A stretch of DNA of 64,000 bases from assembly GCA_951406725.2 (NCBI GenBank), contig OX597830.1, forward strand, positions 68,014,001-68,078,000, given 5' to 3'. This DNA comes from Octopus vulgaris. Its lineage: Eukaryota. Numbering within the stretch: position 1 is the first letter of the stretch; each line of letters starts with the position of its first letter. The position numbers were made by a program, and so were the translations under genes. This document shows positions 19,710 through 61,665 of the stretch, one piece after another. The notes below the pieces were generated by a model, which was given only the letters and a program-made list of their open reading frames with translations, did no database searches and was not told the DNA's origin.

Positions 19710-19804
19710 CAAAGAATGGATTCAAATATTTGCCGTTTTCATCGGAGTGGAGAGAAATTTATGGACACCTGAATGACCTACTTACAGATGAGATTCGCTT
19801 ACAT
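19710..19804 (+). CDS. TRPM: TRPM gene exon: (A)KNGFKYLPFSSEWREIYGHLNDLLTDEIRLH
   Basis: atgttacag|CAAAGAAT...TTACAT|gtaaga; 95 nt. Only the phase 1->0 frame is open, exactly the phase required by the upstream exon and by microexon A1. Confidence 0.8.
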
Positions 19805-20389
19805 GTAAGATAATATATATATTATTATTTATGTTGTGAACCATTAGTAAATATCTCTGTGTATGTATGTATATGTGTGTGTGTGTGTGTGTGTGTCTGT
19901 ATACACACACACACACACAAACCAATGGAAATAGACAGTTGAGATCCATGAAGGTAGAGTCCAAAAGAGTAAGAAGATCCAGTGGTAATCCGGGTGGAGT
20001 GGTGCATATGTGTGTGTACGCATATGTGTGTGCATGTCTATATGAACCTATACACATATTCATTAAAATTTAGCAAGAGCAACAGAGTGACTCTAGGTCC
20101 GACATTTTGTGCGTTGACAGGAGCTCTTGATCCTCGAGTCACTGTGTTGCTCTTGCTACATATTAATTAAGTATACACGTACTCATACTTTGAGTTCTGT
20201 TTCTTCTGTTTGCATCAATAAATCCCTAGATATATGTTTTTTTATCAACTGTCTATCCACGACCTGTTTACAAAGTGTCTTACGAAGTCCACTACATCGT
20301 CTATGTTTGACTATTGTACCGATCCCTGTGCTTCTATATATTATCAGTTGCTACCTCAAGGATAACATGGAACGGTCCGATTTTAGGTA

Positions 20390-22990
20390 TTCTACAAAAA
20401 ATGTCCTTATACCTTCTAATTAGGTCTACACGAAAATGTTACTAGAGAAAAGGATAGGCTTTATAAGGCATAGGAGACGGAAGGTATTTTACTATGATCA
20501 AAGTGCACCACGTTCAGAGGCTAATACATACAATATCAAAGACACCACCTAGAATCAAGGAACTTGATTCCTTCAAGAAGACCTACTGGGCATAATGCAC
20601 AGGCTGAAATTCCATAAGGCCTCTTCCCATTTCAAAGCAAATTCTGTGAAGATATACAAAATATAAAAAACTCTAACGGGTCCTTAATCTTCTCGGATTA
20701 GACTAAGAGCTTATACATGATAGATACATACACTTACATTAGGCTTTTAAATGATTCAATCATACAAAAATACAGACGCTCTTCCACACACTTACAATAG
20801 CATTAACTATGAGGTTAAACAAATAGCAGTTAACCTAGGCATAGCAAACAGAGTAGAAATCTTATCCAAGAGAAACGCTTTTATAACTCTGAAAAATCAC
20901 AAGACAAATTTTGCCTCCAACCCCAAATGCCACCTAATCAACCTGGCCAAGTCTGAGATTGGCATGGCAAGTAAGTATATACCAAGAAGATTAACGATGA
21001 CATAAGAAGATACATGAGCCTCCCTCTATGGTGCAGCACCAATGAGGTAACCTCATGGTTTATTGCCAACTGCGACAGAGACAGGGCTAGATTTACACAG
21101 TTCGACATTGTCGACTTTTATCCATCTATTTCTGAAGAGTTATTAATGAAGGCACTTACCTTTGCCAAGAGCTTCACAGATATTACTAATAATAATACTA
21201 GAGTTATCATGCATGCCAGGAGGACGGTACTGTTCAGCAAAGATTCTACATGGGTTAAGCAACCTGACCCTGAGGGCTCATTTGATGTAGCTATGGGAAC
21301 ATATGATAGCGCCAATGTCTATGATCTTATCGGATTGTACATCCTGGACATCTTAGAGAAGAGGTTTCCTTCAGTCCTCTTCGGTCTCGACAGAGATGTC
21401 CTAGTCATCTCTAGGGGAGCCAACGGCCTCACATTAGACTTAGAAAAGATCTAATTAGCACCTTAGGCTCAATGGATTTCAAGATCACCATTGAGACTAA
21501 TCTCACCACAGAAGATTTCTTAGATGTTATTAGATTTGGTACATACAGGTCCTAGCACAAGCCAAACAAGAGACTGTCTTATATTAGCACAGACTCCAAC
21601 CACCCCCTATGGTTTTCAAGAACCTAGTGAAAAGTGTAAACAAGAGAATCTCAAATCTATTCTCAAACCAAGCAATCTTCGAAGCCACTGCCTCCTTCAA
21701 CAGTAAGGCACTGGCATCGAATGGGTGCCTGTTCCTAGCACCTGGGAAAGAAAGCCCCGCAGAAATGTCGTTTGGTTTGCTCCACCGTTAACACTCAATG
21801 TCAAGACTTGTATGTGAAAGATTTTCCTTAGATTGATAAGCAAACATTTCACACACACATAGATACAGGTATATATTTAACAGATACAACCTAAGACTCT
21901 CCTTTAGTTGTGCTCCTAATGTAAAAAAAAACATTTTAACAAGTACCCACAATACAAGGGATGAGGCAGGTTGCTCTTGCAGGACATATAATAACTGTCC
22001 AGTAGGAGGCCGATGTGAGACTGAAGTGGTCATCTGTGAGGCTACGGTGATACCTAGGCCCGATATCCGCAATAACAGTTATGTACCAGCAAAAAGCAAT
22101 ATTATTAGCTGATCAGCTAGTTCTCATGACAATACAATTGCCAAGCGCAGAGATAATAACCAGTCCAAGACCAGCATTACAGAGAATGTCACTGAAGACC
22201 TCGGTACCGCCACCATGGATAATGAACAAACCATAGAAAGAGTGACCAGGCCTGCAATGTATGTTACCACCAGTACCAACGCTGTACCTAGAAATAATGA
22301 CCTATCCAGGACAAGGGACTTGGAGGAGGTATCCACCATTCCCAGTTCCACCACCTCAGAAGATGACCAAATATTTATCTTCGACACCAATAGGATGACC
22401 AGCCCCGCACTATATGTCATAGGGGTGCGAATAGGCCTATACCTTATGTGTGTAAATATATTGGTTCTACAAGTTCTGCGTTCAAGCGACGTTTTCTTAA
22501 CCACCAGTCATCCTTCAGAGTCCCAGAAAGATGGTTTGAAACATCTTTGGTCCGCTATGTATGTCATCTCAAAGATCAAGGGACCCCGTGTGATATCAGG
22601 CAGAAATTAATTGATCAATTAAGCCTGTATATTAATGGAAGTGGCCGTTACAAGATCTGCATTGCGGAGAGAGCCAAAATTCTGAAGGACTATAAAAAAC
22701 CTGGTGCATTCAACAGCCGCAAGGAAGTGTTTTCTAAATGTACTTACTCAAAAATTGGATCGCCACAATTGCTAGTTAGGCCTCTTCAGATCTATAAGGG
22801 ATTTTCTCCCTCTGATTCAGGTAAAATAACCTGCCCTCATTAACGTTTTTATTAAGAAATATTCCTCGAGCTCTGAGAGTTCCCTTATGTCTGCAATGCA
22901 GATATTTTAAATTTTGTATTCGTATAGAGTCTGACGAGCTGTCCACAAGGCTTTGCTTTGTGTAGCTTTATAACCAAGATATAATTTTTT
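20390..22990 (+). mobile_element. Penelope-like element (RT plus GIY-YIG endonuclease), degraded
   Basis: AFITLKNHKTNF..NPKCHLINLAKSEIG, FTQFDIVDFYPSISEELL, MGTYDSANV..LIGLYIL, and KYIGSTSSAFKRRFLNHQSSF...CIAERAKIL..NSRKEVFSKC. Confidence 0.85.
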
Positions 22991-23019
22991 GTTGCTTATA
23001 CATACATACATATATATAG

Positions 23020-24300
23020 GAGGAGAGTTCACAAAAAAAAGCAAAAGACGAAGACAGGTAGTGTAGACAACAAACAGGTATATTAGTTTAACGCTCGGGA
23101 AGTGAAAAAGTCTTTAACGTTTCAAGCCTACACTCTTCCACAGAAAGGAACACAGAAAGAAACAAGGAGAGAAAATAAAGAATGTGTAGTGGTTAACGAT
23201 CTACTATGGCAAATGCCAGACAGAAGGGTCACACAGGAGAGCTAGGAAGAAGATAATAAAGTAGTGGTGATCCCAAAACGAAGGTGCGCGTGCGTGTGTA
23301 TAAGAGAGTATTATGTGCGTGTGGAAGAGGGCTGGTGACCTTGATGTGTGCGTGTGTGTATGTGGGGCTGGGAAGTGGTCAGTGCTAGTGTGTGCGTGGT
23401 GGTGTGATGTGTTGTGGTGTTGTGTGGTAAGGTGGTGTATGATGTAGTGATGTGATGGTGTTGGGAAGTGAGGGAGGCAAGAGTGGGGAAAGCAAGGGTG
23501 GTGTGTGAGTTAGGCTGAGGGTGGGGTAGAGGTGGGGTATGTGGGTAGGCTGACGGTGGGGATAGATTTGGGGTATGTGGAAGTGGGTGTAAGGGATGGG
23601 ATGGGTGGGATGGATAGGGAAGGTAGGGTTGGAATGTGTAGGATGGGGTTACGAGGGAGGGGGAGAAGGTGACTAGGAGTGAAGAGAAGAGAGAAGGAGA
23701 GTAGGAGTGAAGAGAAGAAGTAGGAGTCGGAGCAAGAGGAGGGATGGATGGGAAGGAAATAGGTGTGAGGAGGAGAGTTGAATTCATGTGGCACAAAGGA
23801 GCGAAGAGAGAAGATTAATCCTTGTTCATGAAGCAAACGGGAGTCCGGATGACCCCTGTGCAAGGACAATCCGAACACAGATAGGTGTTGCAAAGAGTGA
23901 CCGGTAGAACGGAAATGGCAAGAGACTGGGGTGTCACTGCAGAGTTGAATGTCTCAGAAGTGTTCCGCAGACCGGTCAGCCAAGAGGCGTCTCATTTGCC
24001 CGATGTATAGAGAAGGGGAGAGAGAGAGAGCAGGAGATGCAGTAGTTGACAGTGATAAAAGTGCAGGTGAAGGAGTCAGTGATGTGATAGGGTCGATGAT
24101 GGGTGCTGGTGAGGAGAGTGGTGTTGGAGAAATAAGGTCAATTGTAACAGCATGTGTGGAAGCAGGGGAATGAGCAGGGTTGGGAATTTAGATTACAGAA
24201 GAAGCTGTGGACCAAGAGGTCTTGTAGGTTGTGGGCTCATTTGAAGACTGGAGTCACCGAAAGGCTCGGAGAATGGTACATTGGAGAAGTGGGGTGGTGG
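23020..24300 (-). mobile_element. Penelope-like element 3' part (GIY-YIG domain plus pLTR)
   Basis: Minus strand LYIGQMRRLLADRSAEHF (~23960-24010) and RLLHEQGLIFSLRSFVPHEFN. A degenerate hammerhead-like GAAGAG..GAAACGTTA lies near 23110-23140. Confidence 0.75.
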
Positions 24301-24378
24301 GGTGGTATTTGAGGGGAAACATATATATATATATATATATATATATACGCGAGAAAGAAGCAACAAGAATGGATAGGT

Positions 24379-24469
24379 TTTTAGTACAATCGTTTCATAC
24401 AAGGACAGGCTTTATTAAAAGTTGCAAAAATTACAGCATATAAACGTGTCCCGTACTCATCAGCTAAAA
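24379..24469 (-). ncRNA. Type I hammerhead ribozyme motif, antisense copy in left palindrome arm
   Basis: Reverse complement of 25063-25153. Confidence 0.7.
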
Positions 24470-25062
24470 TACATGTTAGTTCTCTAGACATCCTAGTGGT
24501 TGAGGCTATACTCATGAGGTAATGTAGATAATTAAGTAACATAAACAGATTTCCAAAGTTCATTAAAGTTCTTTAAAGATGATGTATAGTCTTATCACAG
24601 AATTTTAAAAAAGTTTTAATAGCATCACAGAGAAGGTGACCTAATCCATAGTGCACATATGAATTTCCAGAGATATGAGGAGGGATTACATACTCACAGA
24701 CGACAAATTTATCCATTGTTAATCACAACGAGGTGGGTCTCAATTCCTGCTTATTAGCATTACTAATAAGCAATGCTAATAAGCAGGAATTGAGACCCAC
24801 CTCGTTGTGATTAACAATGGATAAATTTGTCGTCTGTGAGTATGTAATCCCTCCTCATATCTCTGGAAATTCATATGTGCACTATGGATTAGGTCACCTT
24901 CTCTGTGATGCTATTAAAACTTTTTAAAATTCTGTGATAAGACTATACATCATCTTTAAAGAACTTTAATGAACTTTGGAAATCTGTTTATGTTACTTAA
25001 TTATCTACATTACCTCATGAGTATAGCCTCAACCACTAGGATGTCTAGAGAACTAACATGTA

Positions 25063-25153
25063 TTTTAGCTGATGAGTACGGGACGCGTTTATATGCTGTA
25101 ATTTTTGCAACTTTTAATAAAGCCTGTCCTTGTATGAAACGATTGTACTAAAA
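25063..25153 (+). ncRNA. Type I hammerhead ribozyme motif (Penelope pLTR type)
   Basis: TTTTAG-CTGATGA-GTACGGGAC...GTCCTTGTAT-GAAA-CGATTG-TA-CTAAAA: intact core, stems I and II pair, palindrome-like stem III. Predicted cut after A25147. Confidence 0.75.
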
Positions 25154-25591
25154 ACCTATCCATTCTTGTTGCTTCTTTCTCGCTTATAATCACCCCACAT
25201 TACTGTTTTGTTAAAACAGTATAGTTTTTTTTGGTGCATCTAAGTTAGGTACCATATTCAAGTAAATTCATTTAAATTAACTTGAATCTTTATTGCTTTT
25301 TATATATATATATATATATATACATATATATTATTGTATCTAGGGAGAGTTATTTTCTTTTAGTGCCTTGTTAATTCAACACATTCACCAGTCTGATTTC
25401 CACTCAAATTTTCGTTGCGCCTTGCATCTTTTTCAGTAGTTCTTGATTCTGTTTCATCGGAATTGCGTTTTTTAATTTCTTTTTAAACTTGTACACATGC
25501 GTGTGCACATACTCATATGTATGTGTGTATGTATGTATTTATATATATGTATGTATGTGCATATCTCTACCAGATACAAAAGCGAAATATA

Positions 25592-25624
<33 letters not shown>

Positions 25625-25679
25625 ATATAAAAGAAGTGAAAATATGTGAAAAACGTATATAAAAAGGGGAAGAGAAATG

Positions 25680-25723
25680 CCTTGTGTGTGAATTTGGTTG
25701 ACGGAAACTGAAAGAAGTTTGTC

Positions 25724-25758
<35 letters not shown>

Positions 25759-26010
25759 GGTGTGTGTGTGTGGGTGCATGCGTGTGTGTATGTATGTATG
25801 TATATATATATATATATATCTGTGTTTGTCCCCCCACCATCACTTGATGGCCAATGTTGGTGTGTTTATGTCCCCATAATTTAATGGTTCGGCAAAACAT
25901 ACTGATAGGATAAGTTCTAAGCTTATAAACAATAGGTACTGGGGTCAATTTATTTGACTAAACACGTGTGCACCAGTATGGCCACAGTCAAATGACTGAA
26001 ACAAGTAAAA
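25680..26010 (+). mobile_element. 5'-truncated SINE (family of 31490-31890)
   Basis: GGAAACTGAAAGAAG..(TA)n..GTGTTTGTCCCC...GGCCACAGTCAAATGACTGAAACAAGTAAAA. Confidence 0.75.
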
Positions 26011-26629
26011 TAATAAAATAATGAAAGAACATATATATATATATATATAGTTCAAATTCATAGAAAAACAAAAGATGAAGACAGGTGTAGGAACAAGCAA
26101 GTGCATTAGTTTGACGCTCAGGAAAATTGGAAAAGTCTTTTATGTTTCGAGCCTACGCTCCTCGACAAAAAGGAATAAGAAGAAATCAACAGAGAGAGAA
26201 TGAAACAGAAAGCATTTAGAGTTTAGCAACCTTTTAATAGTTCTCTCCTTGTACTCTTTCTTCCTTTCCTTTTAGTCATTTTTAAAGGTATATGTATGGT
26301 ACTGTATACAATTCTTAGTTTGATACGGCTTACAAATTTTAAACAAATGTTTCAATTGATTAAATAGAAATTCTCTCATCATCATGTGATACTGTTTCTA
26401 ACCAGAAGAATTTATCCATCCAAATCCCATGTCAAAATCAATTTACCATGCTAAAACTACAAAGAAAAAAAATGGAATCATGTGTATCTGAGATATTATG
26501 GATTAGATTATCTCCACCACATAACTGTTGCTATTTATATTCAGTAATCTCTTCTTCATATTATGTGTTGTCAGAAGATGGATCTCAATCATTCTTTCTC
26601 ACATTTAATACCATTTCTTTTATTTCCAG

Positions 26630-26661
26630 GATCTCCATTTGGAAGTCTTTGCTACACAGAG
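26630..26661 (+). CDS. Microexon A1 (32 nt, phase 0->2): DLHLEVFATQ(S)
   Basis: atttcttttatttccag|GATCTCC...ACAGAG|gtaatgcaag; flanks homologous to five other A copies. Confidence 0.8.
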
Positions 26662-27556
26662 GTAATGCAAGAAATATGTCCCTAAATATGATAATATATA
26701 AGTATATATATAGCAGGGTTTCAGTCATGGTATATAGTAAGATAAAATCTTTAATCAGTTGAGATTATCCCAGCAATTAATAAACAAAAATATCTTTTAT
26801 GGATATTGATAACCCCAAACCAACAAGTGAGACAACTACCAATATCAGTTTATTATTGATTTCTATATAAGTCTTTTCTCGTTAAATGTTTGAAATATAC
26901 TAAATGGCTGCTCTTCCAAATCTTACCCGATTAGATCACAAGTATTATTTAAAAATAACAGAAAGGCAGACATCAACTGAAGGCTCAAAAAACCAAATGT
27001 TGATAGGATTTAAATATAGCACTCCGTTATTTTTCTACATTTATTTCTCTTAAGGATTAATAATTTTAATAAGCAGACAGTTTTATTGGGGAAAAAAATT
27101 GACATTTTGTGATATTGATTTCTTTTACTATTATAAAATGAACAGATTTGTGCAAAGTAAGGAGCAGTTGAAACTGGTTTGTGAACTCAGTGGGAAATCC
27201 ATAGAATCTGTAAATGATGATCCTAATTATATTCATAAACAGTGAGAGGGAGAAAGGGAGCAAGAGAAAGAGGGTGTCAGAGGGATGGAAAGAGAGGGAG
27301 GAAGAGAGAGATAGAGAAAGAGAGGATAAAATAAATTGATAGATAGATAGATAGATAGACTGACAGACAGACAGACAGACAGACAAAATATAAAGATGTG
27401 GGTGGGGAGAATGTATTCACTAATTTGTGGATTCGACTTTTGTAACAAGAGACTTGACCAAAGTTTGTGCGTTGAAACTGAAATGACCACATCATGGAGG
27501 ATGAATGATAACCACCACAACATACATATATTATTATGTAATATTAAATACGAGGA

Positions 27557-29645: not shown

Positions 29646-30391
29646 ACAGCAGCAACAACAACAATAATAATTCTCCACTTTCTTTATACCGTCTACCCAA
29701 CTATACCATCAACCATTTACATTATCTTCCCACTTTCTATGTCTGTTACCGTTATGGCCTGAAAAATTTCATTGTATTTTCCTTAATTTCTCTCATCTGA
29801 TGAAAAATAACAGCTGATATTTGAAGCATTGATGACTATGTGTTATGAAACAATAAATATAAGTAATAATAGCCATATAGATTCTGTGGATCTTGGTGAA
29901 TTGCAAGGTAACAATGAAACTGGTCAGTCTGGACATAATTTCACAGAAACACTAAATATATATGGATATGGTTTGATATATCTATTTAATAACTAATGTT
30001 GTTTTGGGACTGTTGCTATATTGTGACTGATGTTATATTGGAAGTGTTGTAAATATATATTTATCTGTGAATAGATCTATTTTTTAAGGTACGATTCCTC
30101 TCATTTGTTACTTGTCTCTGTTACAAATAGTTTCTCCATCTTTCTGCCATTATTACACCTGTCACTCTTCTCTGGCCCAATCATTCTCTCTGGGTATAAC
30201 TTTTCACCTGCCACACAATTCCTTTAATTTTACTTCCTTTCCCATTTTCTTGAGTCCATTTTATGCAAAAACACAATTTTTCTTCTATTCCTTACTTTCA
30301 GTTAAAAGACAGACTGAAATATTAAACTTTAGGCTCATCATGATAAATTCGCTTTACTAATCTGCAATTTTCACATTAACAGATTATCCAG

Positions 30392-30434
30392 TGACTTAGA
30401 TTATGATGACGATTTTTTCATGGCAAGACAAATG
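30392..30434 (+). CDS. Microexon B1 (43 nt, phase 2->0): DLDYDDDFFMARQM
   Basis: ttactaatctgcaattttcacattaacagattatccag|TGACTTAG...CAAATG|gtaagt. Confidence 0.82.
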
Positions 30435-32319: not shown

Positions 32320-34200
32320 AATATGTGTGTGTGTGTGTATGCTTTTTATGCGTTTCCACATTTTTCATCCAATTTTGATGATTTTTTTTTTATTAAATGG
32401 CAAATTTACCCAGGCAGATCACTGCTACATTACCGATGCCTACAGATACACCCTTCTAGGATAAAATTCGATAAAACTGAAGTGACCCCACCACACACAC
32501 ACCTTTTGCAAAAAATGGTTAAAGTTGCACCTGAAAAGTTTTTACAGGAACGTCCCATTTTTATAATTTTGGTGTCAACAGGACCGTTATGTTGTGACAT
32601 TTCAAACAAATATTCTGGCACTACCTTGGGGTTTCTGATTCCCAAGAAAATTGCGAAAAACTTTGAAAAAAATTGATTTTTCGCAATTTTGCAAAATTAC
32701 ACGGTAGAAAACTTTTTACTGGAAAGTCCAATTCCTTTGGTTTTACAGCCAAAAAACCACATGTAATAGCAGTTCTATCAAGTGTCTGTTCTATGTCCAA
32801 AGGCATCCCTGTGACAAAAACACATAAAACTGAAAAAATCGATTTATTTTCAAGTTTTGAATCTTGAGAGCAGCCAGGGTGTCTACTTCTCCAGCTGGCA
32901 CAAGAACCCATGGATACCGTGCTCACTGCCTTCTTCAAACTATGCGCAATGACCCCTTTGCCAAGACACTCCTGTATCCTCAGGTTCCATCATATTACAT
33001 TTGGAAAAAGAAAACACACATTTGGGAATCAAGAAAACAAGGACAACCCATCGTGGGACAGCCAAACTTAAAATCATGTACCCCACCCTTGGAAGAGTTT
33101 ACACAGTTTGCCCTAACCAACAAGAATGATTTTACTTTTGCCTACTGCTGCATGAGGTCATGGGACTGACATCTTTTGACAACCTGAAAAACTTCAAAGG
33201 TGAAGTTTTTACTACATACTGCGAGCCTGCTGTAAAGCAGACTGCTAGAAGACGACGCTCAGTCTGACGCAACAATGGTGGAAGCTGTTACAATACGCTC
33301 AGCGAGGAGTCTTCAAAAACTCTTTGCAGTGCTATTGCAAACATGTGAACTCAGTGATCCTGTCACCTTATGGGAGAAATACAAGGAAGACCTTTCAGAG
33401 GACTACCACCACCAAGAACAACTTCTGTTGCCACTTAAACATCAGTTTCAACGATGAATTCTTCAACAGAGCACTCGACATTGAGGGCAGCCTACTTACT
33501 GCTGGCGGTAACGATCTTTCATTTTATAGTCTACCAAAAGTCAGCAGAACGAGCTCACACATACTACCAATATGCGTTATTCAGGAAACAGCCTCCGACA
33601 TCGATGCTCTTCAATAATACATCGACGGAACTGAGCCGAGGTTGCTTCAGGACCAGCAGCACACATACAGCGCTGTCTACACTTCCATTCGTGAATGCAA
33701 AGGTGGTATTTTCTTTTTAGATGTCCCAGGAGGAACTGGTAAAACATTCGTGACTAAACTTCTCCTTGCAAAAGTACGCCAACAAAAGGAGATCTCTTTA
33801 GCTGTAGCTTCTTCTGGAATTGCCATGACTCTACTGCCCGGGAGTAGGCTGGCTCATTCGATCTTCAAACTCCCATTTAATGCTTCTGTGTCCGACTCAG
33901 CCACCTGCAATAATACAAAAGACTCTGGCAAGGCAGAAGTGCTACAAAGGTGCCAGCTCATTGTTTGGGATGAATCCACCATGGCACATAAAGGATCCCA
34001 TGAAGCACTGGACAGGACCCTGAAAGACATCAGGGGCTGCATTAACCCCATAGGAGGCATTTCCCTCCTGTCTAGTGATTTCAGACAAACCCTATCCATA
34101 ATTCCAAAAGGCACCTGAGCCGACGCTGTAATGGCTTCATTATTTTATCTTTCCTGTGAGAGGACGTTACAATTTTGACTTGTACAACAAGCGCATGCAT
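32320..34200 (+). mobile_element. Helitron remnant (Rep/Pif1 helicase)
   Basis: DPFAKTLLYPQVPSYYIW, LQKLFAVLLQTCELSDPVTLWEKYK, GIFFLDVPGGTGKTF...AVASSGIA..LLPG..AHSIFKLP...LIVWDE...DFRQTL. Confidence 0.88.
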
Positions 34201-35106: not shown

Positions 35107-36305
35107 TCAGCATGACTCTCTATTACACATTAAGTGAACGCTTAATCAGTCATGTGGCTTTTCTTTTCACATGTTCCAGGATGTCACTTTGTGTAGCAAC
35201 AGTACCATCTCAAGTATATGAGAACTACATATTTGATGGTTTCATATGAGCTTTATAGAGGGTCTGTAGAGTTGATGGGGATGAAATACTGTTTGGTTAT
35301 GAAGAAGAAGAAGACCAGTTTATTCAGTATTATTTTTTTTCTATGCAAGATATATTTTTGTTTGTTACAAGAAGTCTTCGGGTATGGTGAGGCCATGTTG
35401 CTTTAGTAACCATCAGTCTTGGAATATTTTCTTGATAGGTTTAGAGAATGTCTCTTTGTGCTTTTCATTGGAATATGACTAAATTATTCATGTTATCTGT
35501 GTAGGGATCTAAATTTTATGTAAATTAAGGTGAAATGTATATCTCTATATATCTCTAGTATCTCATCCAAGATCTGCCAATGCATGAAAGGAATCAGATA
35601 CAGAGCAAAGTTACCAAACAAGGGCTTTGACTGCTCAATATTTTTTTCAGCTATATTCTGTCAGGAATATGTTGTATGGAATCATGATTGTGTTCTTCTG
35701 GGAATTATTCAGATGCCTTATGGAATGATTTGTTCCAGTTGCAATTATTATCAATCTGAGAGAGAGGTTGTTTGGAATTTTGATTTTAAAATGTTAATCA
35801 GGGCTGTAGGTGCAATTTTCTTTCAAGGTACGTCAAATAAAAGATCGTCCAATACATGAAAATTAAATGACTATTCAGTAACATGACCTTTTAATTGTTC
35901 TCTATTTACACTCTTTTATCTCTTCTTTTTAGTCATTTTTAAAGCTAGTTGTGGGGTATTGTATACATTTCTAAGTCTCATATGACTTTGAATTTTACAC
36001 AAAAGTTTAAATTGATTAAATAAAAATTCTCATATCATCATTTGACACTGTTTTTAGTTAAAAGATTTCTTCCATTCAAATCCTATGTCAAAACCAGTGT
36101 ACTATGCCAAAACTATAAATAAGAAAAAAGAAATCATGTGTATCTGTGATAATATGGATTGCATAATCTCCATCAGATAATTGTCACTACTCTCACCTGT
36201 TGTACTATTTATATTCAGTAAGGTCTTCCCTCAGTATAATTTGTTGTAACAAGTTGGAATTCTGTCATTCCTTCTAACGTTCAATATCATTTCTTTTAAT
36301 TTCAG

Positions 36306-36337
36306 GAAGATGAAATGGACAGCTCAGATGAAGAGAG
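36306..36337 (+). CDS. Microexon A2 (32 nt, phase 0->2): EDEMDSSDEE(S)
   Basis: atttcttttaatttcag|GAAGATG...GAAGAGAG|gtaatgcaag. Confidence 0.83.
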
Positions 36338-36799
36338 GTAATGCAAGAAACATATGCCTAAATCTGTTAATATATAAGTACATATATATATATATAGCAG
36401 GGTTCCAATTATGGTGTATAGGGGATCAGCTGAGATTATCCCAGTAATTAGAGATATCTGATCAGTTGAGATTATTTCAGTTATTAGCAAACAAAAACCT
36501 CTCCTGGAAATGTTGATAATTTTAAAGCAATGAGCAAGGGAGATTGTTGATTTCCTTGTAAATTATTATCTCATAATATGATGGATATGTATACTAAATT
36601 GCTATACTTCCAAATCTTACTCCATTAGAATATTGGTATTATTGATGAATAGTAGAAGGATGGAAATCAACAGAAGGCACTAAAGAATATTTGTTTGGCA
36701 TTTAATATAATAATCCATCATTTCTCTAGGTTCATATCTCTTAAGGCAGCTATTTCATTAATAATGCTGATCAACAAAATTCAAATTTTTTGCTGACCT

Positions 36800-37908: not shown

Positions 37909-37948
37909 TGACTTAGAACTTGATGAATATTTCGAGCAACTAAAAAGA
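37909..37948 (+). CDS. Microexon B2 (40 nt, phase 2->0): DLELDEYFEQLKR
   Basis: ttactaatctggaattttcacatttacatattttgcag|TGACTTAG...AAAAGA|gtaagt. Confidence 0.83.
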
Positions 37949-40405
37949 GTAAGTCTTTTTTTAACTTTTAAATTTTGATTTATTTTTGTTGTTTTCATAA
38001 ATTGTGATAAATGAATTGTTGAGAATTTCATCACTGGATTGTGTAAAATGAACTTTGCATATCCTCTTTGTGAATATTTTCATATATTTCCTCACATTGG
38101 TACAAAATGCTTCTATTAGGTCATAAAGTATGAAATTTGTAGAAAAGAAAAAGTTTGCTCATGTTTTATAAATACAAGGAATAGTTTTATTCATCAAGGT
38201 ATGCACCTATATTGTCAATACACTTTTGCCATTTTAGTGGTAGCTTGTCAAGCCTGGAACTGTAAAGGCCTAGCAATCTAGAGAAATAATTAGTACTGCT
38301 TATAGACCAGGGACAAATAAATAAGACCTGTGCATAGAAGAATTTTATCAAAAAGTATAATGTAATAAATTTTAGACACGAACAAAAATTAAGATGTTTA
38401 CATAAGAAGGGAAATTAATTTTACACAATATAAATAAGTGCTAAATAATCAATCATAATATAATCAATCGAACGATATATTTTGAAATAACTGACTCTAA
38501 GAAACAAATGAGAAATTATCCAATCAATTCTTGGAATTCAAAATAAAGTTCACATCTGAATTAACGTTTAACACCACTTTATTTAATGTAATACTAAAAT
38601 TAACATGAAACTTTCACCAGTTCGATCAGAAAGGATATCACAATGAAGACCTTCAAGAAACTGCACCAGTATTACAGTAAAGTTACAATTACAATGGTTA
38701 CTAACCAATGTAATGGAAACTTTTGTAGGTCAATATTCAGTTGCATTTAAATCAAAATGAAAATTAAAATTCATGAAATGCTACTTCATACCTCTTTATA
38801 ATAATAATTGTAATAATATTAAAAATAATAATAATTATTATTATTATTATTATTATTATTAATATATAAAGGATTGAGGTAACTCCTTCAGATATAGAAG
38901 CAAAAATAAAAGAGTGTCATTGTCATCATGTGAAGGATATTTTGACATCTTGTGACTTGATGACAATGACACTCTTTTTTTATTTTTGCTTTTATTATTG
39001 TCATTATTATTTTAATTATTAATTTATATTAAAACTCCAGGAAACCTACATGCTTAAGGGTAATCTATTTGGAATAAACCAATGGAATATATCTCTAAAT
39101 TCTTATCTAATAAGAATCATAACAGAATTTATATACTAATCATCGAATTTAATCAGGTTTTCAAAAATTATGAGGAAAACAGTAAACGTTTGGAGAAATA
39201 CCTTATAACATACCTCTTTATATATATATATACACTTATATGTTTTCTCCCCCTGCACTCATGTGCCATTTTGTATCATTAATAAAGTTGCCTGCATTTT
39301 TGAGGACATAGGTATGCTAGTGTATAATACTTTTCATAACTCCTGTATTGTAGGCCTCTACCACATCGTAGAAATTCGGTGATTATTATTTTCTGTGTTA
39401 TTCTACTTCATAATGAGTATTATAAAGCTGCACCAATAATGGCAGAAATACATTTCTGTTTGTTACGAGAGGTCTTCAGGGATGGTGAGGCTTTAATGTT
39501 GCTTTAGTAACCATCAGTGTTGGAATATTTTCTTGATAGGTTTAGAGAATGTCTCTTTGTGCTTTTCATTGGAATATGACTAAATTATTCATGTTATCTG
39601 TGTAGGGATCTAAATTTTATGTAAATTAAGGTGAAATGCATATCTCTATATATCTCTAGTATCTCATCAAGATCTGCCAATGCATGAAAGGAATCAGATA
39701 CAGAGCAAAGTTACCAAACAAGGACTTTGACTGCTCAATATTTTATTTCAGCTATATTCTGTCAGGAATATATTATATAGAATCATGATTGTGTTCTTCT
39801 GGGAATTATTCAGATGCCTTATGGAATGATTTGTTCCAGTTGCAATTATTATCAATCTGAGAGAGAGGTTGTTTGGAATTTTGATTTTAAAATGTTAATC
39901 AGGGCTGTAGGTGCAATTTTCTTTCAAGGTACGTCAAATAAAAGATCGTCCAATACATGAAAATTAAATGACTATTCAGTAACATGACCTTTTAATTGTT
40001 CTCTATTTACACTCTTTCGTCTCTTCTTTTTAGTCAATTTTAAAGCTAGTTGTGGGGTATTGTATACATTTCTAAGTCTCATATGACTTTGAATTTTACA
40101 CAAAAGTTTAAATTGATTAAATAAAAATTCTCATATCATCATTTGACACTGTTTTTAGTTAAAAGATTTCTTCCATTCAAATCCTATGTCAAAACCAGTG
40201 TACCATGCCAAAACTATAAATAAGAAAAAAAGAAATCATGTGTATCTGTGATAATATGGATTGCATAATCTCCATCAGAAAATTGTCACTACTCTCACCT
40301 GTTGTACTATTTATATTCAGTAAGGTCTTCTGTGTATAATCTGTTGTAACAAGTTGGAATTCTGTCATTCCTTCTAACGTTCAATATCATTTCTTTTAAT
40401 TTCAG

Positions 40406-40437
40406 AAACATGGAATAGGCAGCTCAGATGAACAGAG
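40406..40437 (+). CDS. Microexon A3 (32 nt, phase 0->2): KHGIGSSDEQ(R)
   Basis: atttcttttaatttcag|AAACATG...AACAGAG|gtaatgcaag. Confidence 0.83.
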
Positions 40438-41171
40438 GTAATGCAAGAAACATATGCCTAAATCTGTTAATATATAAGTACATATATATATAGCAGGGTT
40501 TCAGTTATGGTATATTGTAAGCTGCGATTATCCCAGTAATTAGTAAACAAAAATTTTTTTTTGGACAGTGGCACCCCAAAAACAATAAGTAAGGGAGATA
40601 ACAAAGAATATTAGTTTTTTTATTGATTTCTATATACATCATTTCATATATGTTTGAAATATACTATATTGCTACTCTTCCAAATTCTACCCGTTTAGAT
40701 CACTGGTACTATTTGCAAATAGCAGAAAGAAATTAATAAAAGGTTTAAAAAATCCAAAATTTGGTTAGCCTTTAATATCCATCATCTCTCTACACTTATT
40801 TCTCTTAACACAGCTATTAACAATTTTAACAATCACACACAATTTTATTGGTGAAAGAAATTAGATTCTGTGATATTGATTTCTTTCTCTATTATATGAA
40901 GAAAAGATTTATGCAAATTAACAGAAGTTCGAACTGGTTTGTGAACTCTGTGGAAATTCATAGCTTTTACTAATAATGATTTTAATCATATTCATAAACA
41001 GTGTGAGAAGGGCAGAGAGAGTGAGGACATGAAAGAAGGATGGAGGGAGAAAGAGGGAGGAAGAGAGAGATAGAGTCAGAGTAGAGAGAGAGAAAATAGA
41101 TAGATTGATCGACAGACATACATACAGACAGGCAGGTAGGCAGACAGACAGAAAGACAGACAGACAGATAG

Positions 41172-44100
41172 ATAACTTTCTTTATTGGCCACACAGGGCT
41201 GAACAGAGAGGGGACAAATACAAATGTAAAGCTTTTCTTTTTGAAAATGAAAAAGAAAAAGGGAAAAATTCTGATCAAAAGGGATCGGTGGGGGATAAAG
41301 ACGGTCAAAAGTGATCGTGTATCACAGAAGAATTTTAAAAATCTGAAAAGCAAGATTATGTTTATCCGTGGAAAGAAAAGCCTATGGAAAAGACCACGGT
41401 ATCCTCAGGCAGGGAGGGAATAAACACATGAGAGCAAAGTGCTCTCTCTCTCTGTTTTCGATTAACAGGACCATGCTCAAAATGGTTTCATCACTCGCAT
41501 GCACCATCTTTGCTACGTTCACCCACCTTTTTTGAAACTTTCACAAGACAAAACCTGCCTCTCCATTCTCACCTTCCTTTTCAAGTGGTACTTGAAAAAG
41601 TTGATGAGCGATTGGCCAGAGAGGTAAGTGTTTGTCTCTAATCCTTTCGCTCGAGTCTGCCACACACTTTCTTTCACCATGGCCACCAGTATGATGAAGA
41701 CTGTCTTGCCTTCCAAGTTGAGGGAAGATGGTGGAGCAGTTTTCACGATAGACTCGACCGACAGGCGGACTCGTCTCACACATGACAACAGCCATTTGGC
41801 ATAAGCCCACAGGTCCAAAATGGTTTGAGACTGCATGAGTGTGTGCAGAATGGTTTCATCGCTCTGACTGCATCTCGGGCAAGTCGGTCCAGTGTGTCTC
41901 GAACCGTGCCTGAAGAGCTTATTCCGAACAGGTAATGCTTTTCGATAGCACTGCCAGGCCAGGGATCTTTGTTGATTGTCCATAGGTCCTGGCTCGAAAG
42001 TTGTCCTGAAAAGGCAGGTCAGGTGTTCCTCATCAACGCCCAGATTCTGCCCGAGAATGTCATCGCATCTCCCTCCACTAATCCTCTATAGAATGCCTTT
42101 GTTGTAATGAAGTTACACAAGTTTTGTCCCGGACGGCAGAGTTGCTTGACAGCAACGCGACACTCGCAGTCCCATTCACCTAGCCTCGGTCTCTGTTTAT
42201 TCCACAACTGCAATTCAGCCAAGGAGATAAGCTGCAGGAAAGCACACCACACAAACGGCGACCACACCTGTTCACCGTCGTCTATGAAGTGCCGGAGATG
42301 ACACAGTCTCAGCGCATCATCAACCTCCTCATGCCTAGGCCTCCATTTAGCGGGTGTTGACAGCAAATGGACTGCCTAACCATTGGAACGCTTCCCTTCC
42401 ACAAAAAATGGAAGAGTATGCGTTCCAGTTTGGTGATGGTAGGGTTGGGACAAGGCACGATGGTCAGATGGTAATCGATGACGGATGTGATGTATGCGAC
42501 CTTTTAGGCCACTCTAGTCATTATTTCACCCCAGTTCTTCTCCATTTGGAAATCTGGACAGAATCAGACCCTGAGAAATTGAACCGGTCTGTTGGTCAAG
42601 CGTCCAATGATGGAGACACTGTTGGATGGCATGGGCTTGCTTCTCCAGGTACCGAGCCGCAAGCCCACTGACTTTTCTCGATTAATTTTTGCTCCCATTA
42701 CCGCTTCATGTTCTTTTAGTGTCTCTCTGACCAGGTCGATGTGCTTGTGGCTTGACATTATGATGGTGACGTCGTCCACATATGCAGACACGCTCTTCTC
42801 ACATCCCAGCTCTCATAGCATGCCCCTCGGCGTTGCCAGCTTCCATGGTAGTGGCTGAAGAGTCAAAACATACAGCAGCAATGAGAGGGGGCTACCTTGA
42901 TGAACCAAACGCATGATGTTAAATGATCCGGATAGATGACCATTTACGTGAAATACCGAGCAGATGCCACTGTATAAGGCAGCGATCCAACCACAGAAGA
43001 CGGGACTGAAACCAGCCACTTTGAGGACAGCCTCCAAGTAGTGATGGTCTACCCTATCAAAAGCTTTTGATTGATCTAAATTGATCATCACCCCACCCAT
43101 GCCAGGTTCCTTAACTACGCAGTCTATGATGTAGTGCATCAGATGGAGGTTGACCCCTCTTGTTTGTCCTCTCTATGTTTAGCCCCTTGTGGGCAATAAA
43201 GAAATAAGATGGAGGTTGTCATGGATACTCCTATCCGGCATGGCGCACGTTTGTGCTTTGTCGACTAGTTTCTTGATGACAGGCGCCAACCTCTTGGCTA
43301 ACACCTTGGCCAAAATTTTCAAATCTGCATTGAGCAGAGTGATGGACCTGAAGTTATCTACGTCATTTCCCTTGTTCGGATCACCACTCCTTGCTTTACA
43401 AAGACTGGGATATTCCCGTTTTGCTGCCAGTTGCAGTAGACAGCTACCAAGATGCCTCCAAACAAGTCTGGCATATGGCAATAAAGTTCATAGGTCAGAC
43501 CATCCAAGCCTGGTGACTTGTCTCTCGCACAGCCTGCCATCATATCCCATGCATCTGTGGCTGTGATGGGTTTTTTACAGCACTCTGCCTCTCTTGCTGA
43601 GAGTCGTGGCAGGCCACGAAGGTAGGCACTACAGAACACTCTGCATTCTGACCCACCAGTTGTCCTGAACAGTTGGGCAAAGTGTTGTTGAAAGGCCTCA
43701 CACATCTTTTCAGGCTCAAGTAATTCACGCCCCTCTTCATCTGTAAGTGACCTAATGGTGGCTCTGTTGCCTCGTTGCACCTCCGCCACTTGGGCCTCTT
43801 GGGTGGCTCCAACTCCTTTATTACTCAAAGCATGCATCCTAGCTCTGACAATGTATCCTTCGTGTTTGGTGTTGAAGTGTTTGTCGGGGGCCAACCTCAC
43901 TGCCAGTACATGGGATGTGATGCCAGATCTAAGTGCCTCTTCTATTTTCTTAACTAACTCTCCCTCTATTCTATTTCAGTCTAATGCTAGGGCCTTATTG
44001 TACCTCACTGATTTTGCTTTAATTGCTTTCTTTAGGGCATACCACCATCTGTTGTTGATGATGGCACCAGTCAATGCCCTCTTAACTAATGTGCTAATCC

Positions 44101-44825
44101 AGTCCCTGTAAGCCTGGCGTTCTGTGAACGACATGTTCAGCTTCCAGTAACTGGGACCCTCCCTATATGTCTTAACTAAGTCAAGTGTACAAGTCACAAG
44201 TTTGTGGTCTGTGTAGCTGACTATATGGAATTGTGGACAACCTACACTATCTTTATCCACTGTCCTACAGAATATTCTAAGTACAATCTGGATGACCCAA
44301 TGTGGTTGTTCCATGTCCACATCGGCACATTCGGGTGGTCCAGTCGGTACCTCCCAAACAGTTGAAAACATCTGAGCGGGTCTTTGAAGCGTTTGCATCT
44401 CCACATAGTCTAGATGCGTGTCCAGGGTAGTGTTCCAATACCTCAGTAAAAGTAAAGGTTGAGACGTACCCAGGAAAACCTCTAGACGTCAAAAGAAATC
44501 TGGCCGGCCTGTTAAGAATGGTGCATAAACTGTAATCGGTCAAAAAGCACACCCATTGCTGCCATTGACATCCAAACAACCAGCCTACCCTCCGGGTCTA
44601 GGAAAATTGCTCTTACTTTGAGGTCCCGACACTTCCGAAGAAGCACCGCGGTGCCACCTCTGCCCATTCTCGGCAGACATGGAGAAAAATGTTGAAATGT
44701 CCGCCGAACATGTGCTGGAGTGCCCGCAGGCTGTGGAGTCTGGTCTCGCTGATAGAGTCTGGTCTGCAGATTTTGTGACTTGATGTCGTTTAACAGGTAG
44801 CCTTGTTTCCAAGGTGACCCCAAGC
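41172..44825 (-). mobile_element. Tx1/L1-clade LINE ORF2 (APE endonuclease, RT, Cys motif), degraded; 3' end in (GATA/GACA)n
   Basis: GGTAVLL, TDHKLV, GPSYWKLN, KSPGLDGL, FRSITLLNADLKILAKVLAKRL, NLDQSKAFDRVDH, QGSPLS, AYVDDVT, CPRC...ETILH; AATAAA at the 3' end. Confidence 0.9.
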
Positions 44826-48502: not shown

Positions 48503-48530
48503 ATCAGCTGACGATTCATGGCTAGAAAAT
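48503..48530 (+). CDS. Microexon B3 (28 nt, phase 2->0): SADDSWLEN
   Basis: ttactaatctggaattttctcattttctgatcttgcag|ATCAGCTG...GAAAAT|gtaagt. Confidence 0.82.
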
Positions 48531-49827: not shown

Positions 49828-49859
49828 GAACCTGAAATAGACCAACTATTCACAAAAAT
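49828..49859 (+). CDS. Microexon A4 (32 nt, phase 0->2): EPEIDQLFTK(I)
   Basis: ctttctcttattttcag|GAACCTG...ACAAAAAT|gtaatgcaat. Confidence 0.8.
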
Positions 49860-51620: not shown

Positions 51621-51692
51621 TATATGGATATTATTTGATATATTTATTTAATAATAACCCATGTTATATTGGTACTGTTGTAAATATTTATA

Positions 51693-52898
51693 TGAGGTTG
51701 TCTCACATGAAATGTCACATTTGAATAAGGAAACATTAAAATTTGTTTTTTAAGTTTTAGAATATTTATTTATTTAATCAAAATATGATCGTTGTTAATT
51801 TATGCCCTTCATCCAACGTTCCCTCTAAGGCATATATTTATCAACTGATAAATTATCACTGATAAATTGTTGAGATGCTTCAATTACCTCTTCTTTATTT
51901 AAGAATGTTTTATTGCATATAGCAAGCTTGGAGTATTTAAATATGTGATAACCAGTAGGAGAGATATCAGAAGAATAAGGAGGATGTGCCAAAATTTCAT
52001 AATTCAGGCATTGCAACTTGTGGACTGTAGCATGAGAAGTGTGAGGTTATGCATTATCATGAAGCAAAATTGGGCCATCACTATTCACTAATTTAGGTTG
52101 CTTCTTTTTTAATTTTCCATGCATAAAATTTCCTGACAATAGGTTGTTGTTGTTAAAGTTTCTCTTTGTTGCAAAAATGAAAAATGAACTACCTCTTTGT
52201 TGACCATACAGTGACCAACTTTTTAGGATGCAGTGGTGGTTTTGAGTAGTGTTTTGGTGACTCACCTGCATCTAACCACTGTCCTGTCCACCTGCTATTA
52301 TTATCAAAGAGTTTCCATTTCTCATCATACATAATGAGTCGATTCAAAAATGGTTTTCTTTCCAACTGAGAAATCAACATGGAACACAGAACAAACCTAT
52401 CCATCTTTTTTACTTTTCCAATTTTCTTCAAGTGTCAAGAAGCAGTTGCAGATGTCTGGAGCTCTGATCTAATTTTCTGGACTGTTGTTCTCAGATTCCA
52501 TTTAATCAAAGCATTCAATTCATCATGCCAGATATCAGATTTTAGTCTCCCTCTTGATTTATTTTTAATGCTTTCATTTCCTGAACAAAATCTTTGGAAC
52601 CATTTCTGAACAGTTCTAATGTCAACAGATTCATTACCAAAAGTGCACTTGATATTTTGTAGAGCTTTGGTGGTAGAGTGACCCAACTTGTATTCATACA
52701 AGAATATCACTTGGTATTATTCTGTTGTCAACATTGTCATAAGAGCTGTGGGTAGCAATTTTGAATAATAGAATTGTCTAGAAAGAAAAAGAGTAAGAGT
52801 AAACACAAGCATGTACATAGAAACTCATTCAAAATCCATTTATAGATGACTCATAAGAAACCCAGTTAAAATACAATATTTCATGTGAGACAACCTAA
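51693..52898 (-). mobile_element. Mariner transposon, full length, degraded
   Basis: TIRs TGAGGTTGTCTCACATGAAAT / ATTTCATGTGAGACAACCTAA flanked by TA. ORF pieces IFLYEYKLGH, RTVQKWFQRF, YDEKW, LLHDNA, HPPYSSDISPTGYHIF. Confidence 0.92.
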
Positions 52899-53142: not shown

Positions 53143-53181
<39 letters not shown>

Positions 53182-53358: not shown

Positions 53359-53410
53359 ATTTACGAATATTATCTCATCTGGTCATTCAGGATATAAATA
53401 TGGATATAAG
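53359..53410 (+). CDS. Microexon B4 (52 nt, phase 2->0): FTNIISSGHSGYKYGYK
   Basis: ttaccaatctggaattttctaatttactgattttacag|ATTTACG...TATAAG|gtaagt. Confidence 0.82.
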
Positions 53411-54977: not shown

Positions 54978-55963
54978 TTGGGTCATCCCATAAATAATGC
55001 AGTTTTTATACTTCTTTTATCTTTCAAAATTAAGATGAACAAAGTTCTTTTTTATCTAAAATATATTCTCCTTCATTTCCTACAATGCTCTTCCATCTAA
55101 CTAGTAGAATTGTAAGATCCCTCTTCCAAAATTCATTTGTCCATGATGAAAAATACTTCTCTAGTACTTTTCCAACCTCATCTACAGAATTCATATTTTT
55201 TCCGTCCAAATGATTTTGAAGACTGTGGAATAAATGATAATAAGATGGTGCAATGGTGGGTGGGACATCGTTTCCCATTCAAACTGTTCAGCTTTCAGAA
55301 TGCTATCCCCACTGTATGTAGCTGAGAATTATCCTCATGGAAGAACACCTTTCATCTAGAAACCAAAGATGGTCGTTTTTCTTCTAGTGCTAACATAAGC
55401 CACTCAAGTTGCTCATAGTAGATCTCCTTTGTTATAATTTGGTTTGGGTTTAACATTTGGAAAGTTTATGAGGAACTCATTGACCCAATTTTCTGACTTT
55501 TCCAATGGCACACAGGTGTCAATGAATGGTTGAATCCAAGCTTCCTGCTAAATCCAGGCTTCTCTGCAGGTTCCTTAAAAGTTATGATGTGATTTCATTC
55601 TACTAGGGTTTGCAGGACGTCCTCAGAATTTCTGGAACCACTGTTGACTCTGGATTATGTTTATTGTCTGATCTCCATATCATACTCTGCATAAATATTC
55701 CTCACACTTTCCATTGCATTGTTGTCTTTATTGAACACATAAAGTAAAATACACCAAAGATGCTCCTTTGTTACTTCCATTATAGGTTTGAAAAAATAAC
55801 TGTTAAAAGCGAATTACACTCTTCAAAACTTGCACTAAAGATATGTATAAGGTAAAATTACTACCTGCTTTTATAGCAAGTTGATGCAGGTAGTTTATCC
55901 CATCCCCCTCCGACTTTTAGTTCAGTCAATTGATAAAACTGCATTATTTATGGGGTGACCCAA
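54978..55963 (-). mobile_element. Internally deleted mariner transposon
   Basis: TIRs TTGGGTCATCCCATAAATAATGCAGTTT / AAACTGCATTATTTATGGGGTGACCCAA flanked by TA; IAPSYYHLFHSLQNHLDGK...RWKSIVGNEGEYI. Confidence 0.92.
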
Positions 55964-56939: not shown

Positions 56940-56971
56940 AACATTGTTAAATACAGCAGAGAAGAAGAGAG
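56940..56971 (+). CDS. Microexon A5 (32 nt, phase 0->2): NIVKYSREEE(S)
   Basis: atatcatttcttttgttttcag|AACATTG...GAAGAGAG|gtaatgcaag. Confidence 0.82.
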
Positions 56972-59604: not shown

Positions 59605-59885
59605 AATCAATGGATCAACTCTGTTGTGAAATTTAACATCCAAGTGGCTGAGCATTCCTTAGACATGCGTACCCTTATTGCAGTTCTCACAGAGAGTCAG
59701 CATGACACACTGAATGTGACAAGGCTGTCCCTTTGCAATACAGGGACAACTCATTTTTGTCAGCTGAATGGACTGAAGCAACATAAAATAAAGTATCTTG
59801 CTCAAGCACAAAGGCACTGCCAGATATTGGACTGAAGCCCTTATGATCATGGGGCAAATAGCCCAACCACCAAGCTATGCACCTT
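59605..59885 (-). mobile_element. tRNA-derived SINE, paralogous copy of 50745-51068
   Basis: CAAGTGGCTGAGCATTCCTTAGACA...CCTTATGATCATGGGGCAAATAGCCCAACCACCAAGCTA. Confidence 0.75.
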
Positions 59886-60514
59886 CCCATATATGAAATA
59901 ATAGCCATATGAATTCTTTGGCTCTTGGTGAATCACAAAGAAACAATAAAACTGGTCACTTTGATTCTTATCCTAAATGGCTGAGACCTCATCTGACATA
60001 ATTGCAAAGAAACACTAAATATATATGGATATTATTTGATATAATTATTAAATAATGACCCATGTTATACCGATACTGTTGCAAATATTTATATATCTGT
60101 AAATTGGTCTAGTTTTAAGGTATGATTCCTCTTCTTTGTCACATGTCCCTGTCACAAATAGTTTCTCCACCTTTCTGTCACTTAGAATTTTCAGTATATT
60201 TTTACTTGTCTTCCTTTGAGAAATTGCCTCTTTCTAATTTTTGCCTTAATTTCTTAGACTCCTTTACTCTTTCTTTCCCTCTCACCCTTCATCTCTGACT
60301 GAATCACTCTCTCTGCTTATAACTTTCCACCTGCTACACAATTCCTTAAATTTTACTTCCATTTCCATTTCCTTGATTCCATTCCAAGCAACGACGCAAC
60401 TTTTCTTCTGTTTTTTCACTTTCTTTTCAATGATAAAGACTGAAATATTAAACTCTACACTCATGTCAAATTCACTTTACTAATCAGGAATTTTCTCATT
60501 TACTTATTTAACAG

Positions 60515-60590
60515 CTATACGAATAGTTTACCGTTTCAAAGAACTATCTCATACTGTATTCCAAACTTTCCACTAAAAATACCTATATTG
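60515..60590 (+). CDS. Small exon B5 (76 nt, phase 2->0): YTNSLPFQRTISYCIPNFPLKIPIL
   Basis: ttactaatcaggaattttctcatttacttatttaacag|CTATACG...ATATTG|gtaagt; open in the required frame. Confidence 0.82.
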
Positions 60591-61624
60591 GTAAGTGTTC
60601 AGAAAATCAGATAAGTAATTATTTTTAATTTTGTATAATTCTTTGATTAGTTCTATTTGCATAAACTATAACGAATGGTTTGTTGAGAATTTCATAATTT
60701 TTTTTTTTTTTGTATAAAAGAATGCTGTATATAATGTTTTGAAATATATTTATATATTTTCCAATATTGGTACAACAGGCTACTATTTTTTATACCTGTA
60801 GACCAAGCTATTATTCTTCAGACTAGTGGAGCCATCTACCAGTTTTCCAACAGGTAGATCCAGCAACTATATGCAATACATTTACAGCAGGCTTCTTTAT
60901 GTCATACTATTATGGCCAGTGTAGTAGTTTTCAGTTTAGAATTATTGGATGCTGTTTTTCGTATTAGAAGAATGAGCTACAATATATCATATTGGTAAAC
61001 CAGACTAGTATTTTTTTGAAATTTGTTGAGTAAGCTGCTAGTTTACATATCATTAGTGGTGGAAAATTATTTTAGATAAGATGGAGCCTAACTTACTATT
61101 TTTCATATCAGTAGAGCCAGTTCCTAATTTCCCCAGATGTTGTAAGACAATCAAGGGATGGTATATCTTATAAACAAGAAGACAGAAAAAATGTGCTAAG
61201 AATATTTATGGGAATAGAACACTATCTCTCCAGTAAATTATTTAGCCATGCTAACTGATACACCAAAGTGACTTAAAAAAATATAGCCATCTAAATTAAA
61301 ACCCCTAATTTAACAAACTGAGATAGACATACATTTGGCTTGTCATTGGAAACTCAGATCTTACAGTTTCAAAGTATGAATATGTCACATGGAATCACAA
61401 TTATATTCTTGAGGGGATCATTCAGAAATTCTATAGAAATTTTTTTTGCAGTTCCAAAGATTAGAAGTTTTAGAGAAGGGATGTTAAGAATGTTGGTTTT
61501 AAAAACGTTTTAAAAGAAATATGCCTTTTCTATAATCGTTGGCAAAAATTGATGCTATAAGATTGTCAGTAGTTGAATCCCCAACATTTTTTCTCATATT
61601 CAATATCATTTCTTTTATTTGCAG

Positions 61625-61665
61625 GATGATGTTCAGGAATTGGTACAGGAAGACATAAAATTGAG
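61625..61665 (+). CDS. Microexon A6 (41 nt, phase 0->2): DDVQELVQEDIKL(S/R)
   Basis: caatatcatttcttttatttgcag|GATGATG...TTGAG|gtacta. The acceptor is homologous to other A copies, but the donor differs and an alternative GT at 61643 is possible. Confidence 0.62.

Follow-up and report, generated by a model that had tools for sequence, protein, structure and literature searches.

Phase-matched micro-exons between SLOG modules of an octopus TRPM-type channel gene: probable descent from duplicated module-opening exons

When a gene carries a run of short exons whose reading frames fit together in dozens of ways, does the pattern speak for combinatorial splicing, or does it record how the run came about? 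This question is raised by a 64,000-nucleotide stretch of the Octopus vulgaris genome (C17:68014001-68078000 of G000:C17, here called the window; coordinates are window positions unless given in megabases (Mb) or with the prefix C17), in which an ion-channel gene holds five pairs of micro-exons, A1-B1 to A5-B5, followed by a further exon, A6. An earlier note on this DNA took the phases of these exons as permitting any A exon to be joined to any later B exon and proposed that coupled skipping of pairs gives cell- or tissue-specific channel isoforms, with the alternative that the loop simply grew. It is this alternative that the DNA supports. The array is real and coding. Its alternating phase 0-2 and 2-0 micro-exons are probably tandemly duplicated, decayed copies of the two exons with which each module of the gene begins, and they probably encode a flexible, acidic spacer, spliced for the most part in order. 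As a sign of combinatorial splicing the phase architecture does not hold, given that any tandem array of one two-exon 0-2-0 unit must show the same pattern; it is an inherited by-product of the array's origin and not evidence for regulated splicing.

All eleven exons of the array are intact, bounded by AG and GT, and situated where the earlier note had placed them (Table 1). The phases hold for all ten A and B exons, namely 0 to 2 in A1-A5 and 2 to 0 in B1-B5 (28-76 nucleotides, nt), and each of the five pairs runs from phase 0 to phase 0. Enumeration of the 1024 subsets of these ten exons left 342 with a length divisible by three and 90 that were stop-free, which are the 89 alternating paths counted previously plus one off-frame path; omission of one exon alone breaks the frame and pairwise omission keeps it. 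The boundary of five pairs is itself arbitrary, since A6 and the exon following it share the A and B phases, and six pairs would give 233 variants by the same formula. The codon formed by joining an A exon to the same or a later B exon encodes Ser, Arg or Ile (15/15), as claimed, and the absence of a stop is automatic, because the A exons end in AG or AT, so that the split codon starts with A, and no stop codon begins with this base. The shared donor motif of A1-A5 (GTAATGCAA, 5/5) and the consensus B donors (GTAAGT, 5/5) were likewise borne out. Exon status is above chance: homology extends to the flanks from unit to unit, and exons of the array are contained in four gene models (P0001, P0002, P0004 and P0011) that are independent and come from two species.

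Table 1. Exons of the array and the coding exons on either side of it.
Feature	Position	Strand	Remarks
Coding exon upstream of the array, closing part of SLOG/MHR2 module, phase 0 to 2	8952..9040	+	not part of the array; hypervariable between paralogs
Coding exon upstream of the array, helical region following SLOG, phase 2 to 1	16514..16704	+	hypervariable between paralogs
E0, last exon preceding the array, phase 1 to 0	19710..19804	+	bin covered by contigs in 4/4 runs
A1 micro-exon, 32 nt, phase 0 to 2	26630..26661	+	in P0001, P0002 and P0011; bin covered in 4/4 runs
B1, 52 nt, phase 2 to 0	30383..30434	+	second in-frame acceptor at 30392, 9 nt in (43 nt)
A2, 32 nt	36306..36337	+	
B2, 40 nt	37909..37948	+	
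A3, 32 nt	40406..40437	+	87.6% identity between its surroundings (39448-40818) and those of A2 (35350-36754)
B3, 28 nt	48503..48530	+	donor flank aligns with donor flank of the conserved second TRPM exon
A4, 32 nt	49828..49859	+	ends in AT
B4, 52 nt	53359..53410	+	
A5, 32 nt	56940..56971	+	
B5, 76 nt	60515..60590	+	
A6, 41 nt	61625..61665	+	the module-opening TRPM exon itself
Conserved exon after A6, phase 2 to 0	66899-66980 (window-relative)	+	past the window end

Judged from its sequence, the host gene appears to be an octopus TRPM-type, TRPM2-like ion-channel gene with repeated SLOG (MHR1/2) modules, and the gene family had been named correctly before. Protein P0001 (source label Octopus vulgaris), which corresponds to the window's exons, gave zero matches by itself in a Pfam scan, and none of the seven open reading frames scanned from the window reached the cut-off. 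Among the other proteins, PF18139 (LSDAT_euk, SLOG) occurs as three stretches in P0002, two in P0004 and four in P0005, all far over the cut-off, and the complete paralog P0004 additionally carries PF25508 (MHR3/4-like region) and Ion_trans. A PDB sequence search with P0004 returned sea anemone and human TRPM2 (6co7, 6mix) as top matches; TRPM2, TRPM5 and TRPM3 matches lie within 10 bits of one another and do not separate the subclade, and "TRPM2-like" denotes the sources' label together with the top PDB match. All matches in word-indexed protein searches came from Octopus. The SLOG modules are encoded by exons upstream on the window's contig; four modules precede the array, which is placed where one SLOG module has ended and the following one has yet to begin.

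The descent of the exons is read from their surroundings. A6 is the conserved exon that opens every module, and the canonical exon at C17:68192823, together with about 1.5 kilobases (kb) of upstream and 2 kb of downstream intron, aligns to the surroundings of A1-A5 at 65-80% identity (E down to 2e-149). A profile of the A donor flanks scored 52-66 bits on all three canonical copies and matched none of the 28 other donor flanks listed. The donor of the three canonical copies on this contig is GTAATT or GTAATA, and the GTAAT-type donor of the A exons appears to come from this conserved parent TRPM exon. The corresponding profile of B donor flanks placed at the top seven of the nine copies of the conserved exon that comes next (phase 2 to 0), at 4.9-23.2 bits (best of 22 other exon flanks, -0.8), and direct alignment of a B donor flank with this exon gave an E of 7e-11. 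Repeated tandem duplication and decay of these two module-opening exons would have produced the array, every copy inheriting both phases and both donor types because the copied unit would be a two-exon block bounded by phase-0 introns. Copying may have proceeded by unequal crossing-over or gene conversion, and selection would have acted on the frame and not on the sequence.

The frame can be followed across six arrays extracted by flank homology. All 24 A copies in them measure 32 nt and are free of stops; of the 25 B copies, 23 combine a length of 3n+1 with an intact donor, one has lost its donor, and one, at 53 nt, carries an additional A within a run of A. Phase is also kept in 16/16 further B-type and 8/8 A'-type exons from N-terminal arrays and junctions, A' being a different 56-59-nt phase 0-2 partner that accompanies related B exons (46, 49 and 70 nt) in the N-terminal arrays of neighboring genes, all in phase. 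Retention of the frame across at least nine B length classes points to translation and to selection on the frame while the sequence drifts; the A exons differ among themselves at 49% of sites, compared with 24% in their splice-site flanks. Copy number shifts by whole pairs: at 67.77-67.78 Mb one more A+B pair is present, at 69.46 Mb a 4.3-kb repeat (95% identical) holds three pairs resembling A2/B2, and at 67.827 Mb a 9-kb deletion takes out exactly one pair. One copy without A1 and one lone B exon are the exceptions. Comparison of the micro-exons with the 79.4-Mb copy gave no sign of positive selection (nonsynonymous differences, pN, 0.054; synonymous, pS, 0.038; p=0.78), and 10 of the 22 differences fell in A3. 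A seemingly different B5 in the 67.8-Mb copy was rejected, since its junction crosses an assembly gap.

Alternating micro-exon arrays of the second kind, at the N-termini of cluster genes, were seen at C17 68.24-68.30 Mb (-), 44.61-44.68 Mb (-) and 68.42-68.48 Mb (+), with varying copy number.

The encoded spacer comprises 136 residues, with 30 D/E and 16 S, and would form a disordered, flexible and acidic connection between two SLOG modules; its residues 1-80 lie on the disordered side of the charge-hydropathy line. An ESM Atlas search with the spacer returned no usable match.

Several observations weigh against this account of the array. The spacer's final 56 residues do not fall on the disordered side. 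Two of the nine parent-exon donor flanks scored negative with the B donor-flank profile, and between the B acceptor flanks and the acceptor of this presumed parent no homology was seen, all scores being negative; the acceptor side is homologous among B copies, and being unlike that of the parent it implies that the 5' end of B is new or unrecognizable. At another module junction a lone 28-nt B-type exon (C17:67955210 (+) and ~68137610 (-)) lies between two phase-0 boundaries and would cause a frameshift if included alone; a search for an A partner found no flank homolog (best E 0.16) and four shared candidates that were unconvincing. In addition, the A donors match the consensus at 6.0 of 9 positions by simple count, compared with 7.8 for the B donors and 7.2 for 26 canonical exons, three gene models (P0001, P0005 and P0009) show skips of pairs from a B exon to a later A exon, and the statement that splicing is mostly in order rests on gene models.

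These last points touch on the rival view that A+B or B+A blocks are skipped by tissue or cell, tuning the length and charge of the spacer, with duplication as the source of raw material, which we consider unlikely. The 89 stop-free alternating paths would permit such skipping, and the RefSeq isoform X4 (P0009) of a related Octopus sinensis gene is without 70 residues present in X1-X3 that are exactly two pairs, A'-B-A'-B (56+49+59+46 = 210 nt), as mapped in the neighboring gene. However, the X4 junction could stem from cross-mapped reads of a paralog at 67.81-67.83 Mb that bears a genomic pair deletion, in which the B exon is identical to the first B of the X4 gene at 46 of 49 nt and no A' exon was detected before the A exon. 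Whole-pair skips also appear in P0001 (B3 to A6) and P0005 (B3 to A5), but P0001, P0004 and P0005 hold clear prediction errors (an inverted repeat taken as a terminal exon, a pseudo-exon within an intron and a junction across an assembly gap), and the model for P0005 crosses a scaffold gap. Gene-model skips were rejected as proof of splicing, each of them having an artefact explanation.

The A donors, to whose weakness the earlier note had drawn attention, lie about 1.2 matches of 9 below the canonical ones on the same crude count. The GTAAT-type donor is inherited, six of 26 canonical donors are equally weak (score <=6), A6 is weaker still, and the +5 G is absent in 14 of 26 canonical donors of the same gene (the comparison omits one of 25 canonical donors, whose position was not found). 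Moreover, nothing in the sequence suggests a coupling of the skipping of A to that of B, and a weak A donor alone would give frameshifts. The UGC motif that marks eMIC/SRRM4-type neural micro-exons directly ahead of the acceptor was not enriched: TGC is found upstream of 2 of 11 exons, compared with 421 of 1672 background windows (25%). Models that read the array in order come from O. sinensis, namely P0002 (A1 to A4) and P0011 (A1-B1-A2-B2-A2-like). On the strength of such models, splicing would be mostly in order and the skipping of pairs at most a tolerated by-product.

Two further features of the gene models were noted. The open intronic segment at 16262-16408 that P0004 takes as an exon diverges between copies as intron does and is likely a prediction artefact. 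When P0006-P0010 are compared with P0004 and with C17:68.20-68.24 Mb, in the O. sinensis isoforms X1-X4 one SLOG module's first half is joined to the apparent second half of the last module, and X5 uses the last module's own first half; whole-module skipping and an assembly or annotation effect are both possible explanations of this joining.

Transcripts were checked over 19650-27000, which holds E0 and A1, in four of 24 runs, these runs being contigs with coded labels whose nature as RNA is a guess. The check was dominated by repeat-derived contigs: among the joints listed (15 of 185) all lay in repeats and none at exon ends, and none of the loose ends (24 of 1277) or pieces (32 of 23617) listed lay at exon ends either. 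The bins of E0 and A1 had depth in 4/4 runs and the bin directly before A1 was without depth in 4/4, with the run labelled X1 covering the intron too; the depth in the two exon bins gives a weak hint of exon use.

In three of the four runs, the E0 contigs carry only a two-base variant of another copy and not the letters of the window, which speaks for a second rival explanation: that a fixed subset of the exons is used, for example with A4-B5 routinely skipped or ending the transcript, or that the window's copy is a truncated duplicate or an uncollapsed haplotype, with diversity provided by genomic copies and not by splicing. In line with this, P0002 terminates by read-through of the A4 donor, and the window's contig ends in a 100-N gap at window-relative 69022 (C17:68083022), about 2 kb past the next conserved exon, beyond which the sequence is inverted and no continuing plus-strand exon was found in 235 kb. 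Because the contig ends in this gap before any pore exon, the present assembly offers no link from the window's copy to pore exons; the Ion_trans domain is seen in the paralog P0004. Identity among the copies is furthermore 94-99%, and three of them begin or break off at a gap; some of those that abut gaps may be haplotypes. Against this explanation stand the intact state of the window's eleven exons, the three other copies that run from the same array into the next conserved exons, the Ion_trans domain of P0004, and a strong nonsynonymous excess in the exons upstream (see below), which argues for a distinct functional paralog. All 11 exons recur in a copy at 79.34-79.46 Mb, which is gap-free over the stretch examined. 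We hold this second explanation to be improbable, and continue to favor duplication of the two-exon unit with mostly in-order splicing.

Further 100-N scaffold gaps occur in the TRPM cluster at C17:67695403, 67803160 and 56965707, and the contigs flanking them appear mis-ordered or inverted.

A stronger signal, and a better lead than the micro-exon array itself, comes from the three coding exons that precede it, E0 included. Relative to the 79.4-Mb copy (79.41-79.42 Mb), these exons differ at 68 of 375 sites (18%) and the flanking intron at 49 of 2269 (2%; p=4e-30), with a pN of 0.21 and a pS of 0.085 (p=0.014), and the divergence halts at both exon edges. A third copy and the O. sinensis protein P0003 hold further distinct versions of these exons, and P0002 is nearly identical to the 79.4-Mb copy. 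Sequence divergence of this kind suggests that the helices following the SLOG domain are under diversifying selection, possibly together with intron homogenization; pS exceeds the intron rate (p=0.002), and conversion may therefore contribute. Whichever reading of the splicing holds, this exon-limited divergence allows the cluster to be tested as a candidate for diversified sensing of ligands or stimuli. Going further, one might speculate that in the multi-SLOG TRPM channels of octopus the distance and the charge between tandem nucleotide-sensing modules are adjusted through coupled skipping of asymmetrical micro-exon pairs. Each gene would then yield dozens of tissue-specific isoforms, in addition to the paralogs with their neighboring helical exons subject to diversifying selection, and the outcome would be a diversified sensor family whose material is the channel's own first exons, copied and decayed; we would call this a long shot.

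Within the introns of the window, the stretch at 24344-25188 is self-inverted (98.8% by BLAST) and absent from the 79.4-Mb and 67.7-Mb copies, and is likely a recent foldback insertion in the intron between E0 and A1. Tandem repeats lie at 15292-15854 (period 70, 8 copies) and 17288-17542 (period 66, 4 copies). Decayed intronic open reading frames at 1333-1896, 4333-6920, 20751-22843, 33236-34144, 41519-44488, 51825-52716 and 55030-55278 resemble what we take to be fragments of reverse transcriptase, helicase and mariner-type transposase.

Among known systems, combinatorial arrays of cassette exons or micro-exons are familiar from Dscam, CD44 and exons 4-8 of troponin T, in which the exons are frame-neutral singly or mutually exclusive and their usage has been shown by RNA. 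The octopus gene resembles these in having many short exons that can be combined in frame, but differs in that single skips cause a frameshift, so that coupling would be needed, and in that its array is known from DNA and gene models. Unlike the mutually exclusive clusters of Dscam, the octopus models include consecutive A and B copies together; docking-selector pairing was not searched for. If the skipping of pairs were real and regulated, it would represent an unusual coupled-skipping system in a sensory channel family. The A length of 32 nt is close to that of the neural micro-exons of flies, with a median of 31 nt for eMIC exons in the accessible text of PMC8797185. As in TRPM/TRPS channels, SLOG, the MHR3/4-like region (PF25508) and Ion_trans are present in the octopus paralog P0004. 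The channels described in the accessible part of PMC13143021 have a single set of MHR1-4 each, whereas in octopus SLOG is repeated and micro-exon spacers stand at module junctions. The literature searched, which covered few subscription papers and did not include supplements, yielded no description of a TRPM cluster with repeated SLOG modules, and in the text of PMC13402157 that was accessible the words "tandem" and "splic" occur 0 times; the TRP sequence tables of PMC13402157 and PMC13143021 might include members of this cluster.

The closest parallel is with symmetrical exon modules, flanked by same-phase introns, whose tandem duplication builds disordered regions, as described in the accessible portions of Patthy (PMC6335736) and of Schad et al. 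(PMC3632108). Homologous unit flanks and copy-number change by whole units are both present in the octopus array. In the same manner as in those two papers, so far as their accessible text goes, a module bounded by phase 0 has been duplicated in tandem, the frame is kept automatically, the product is a low-complexity spacer and the skipping of a whole module is frame-neutral. The locus offers a clear case of a frame-compatible exon array that arises for free from duplication of a two-exon unit, and it cautions against reading regulated splicing into phase patterns of this sort. What distinguishes it from the single symmetrical exons mainly treated in what could be consulted of PMC6335736 and PMC3632108 is that the octopus unit is a pair of asymmetrical exons, apparently decayed channel exons.

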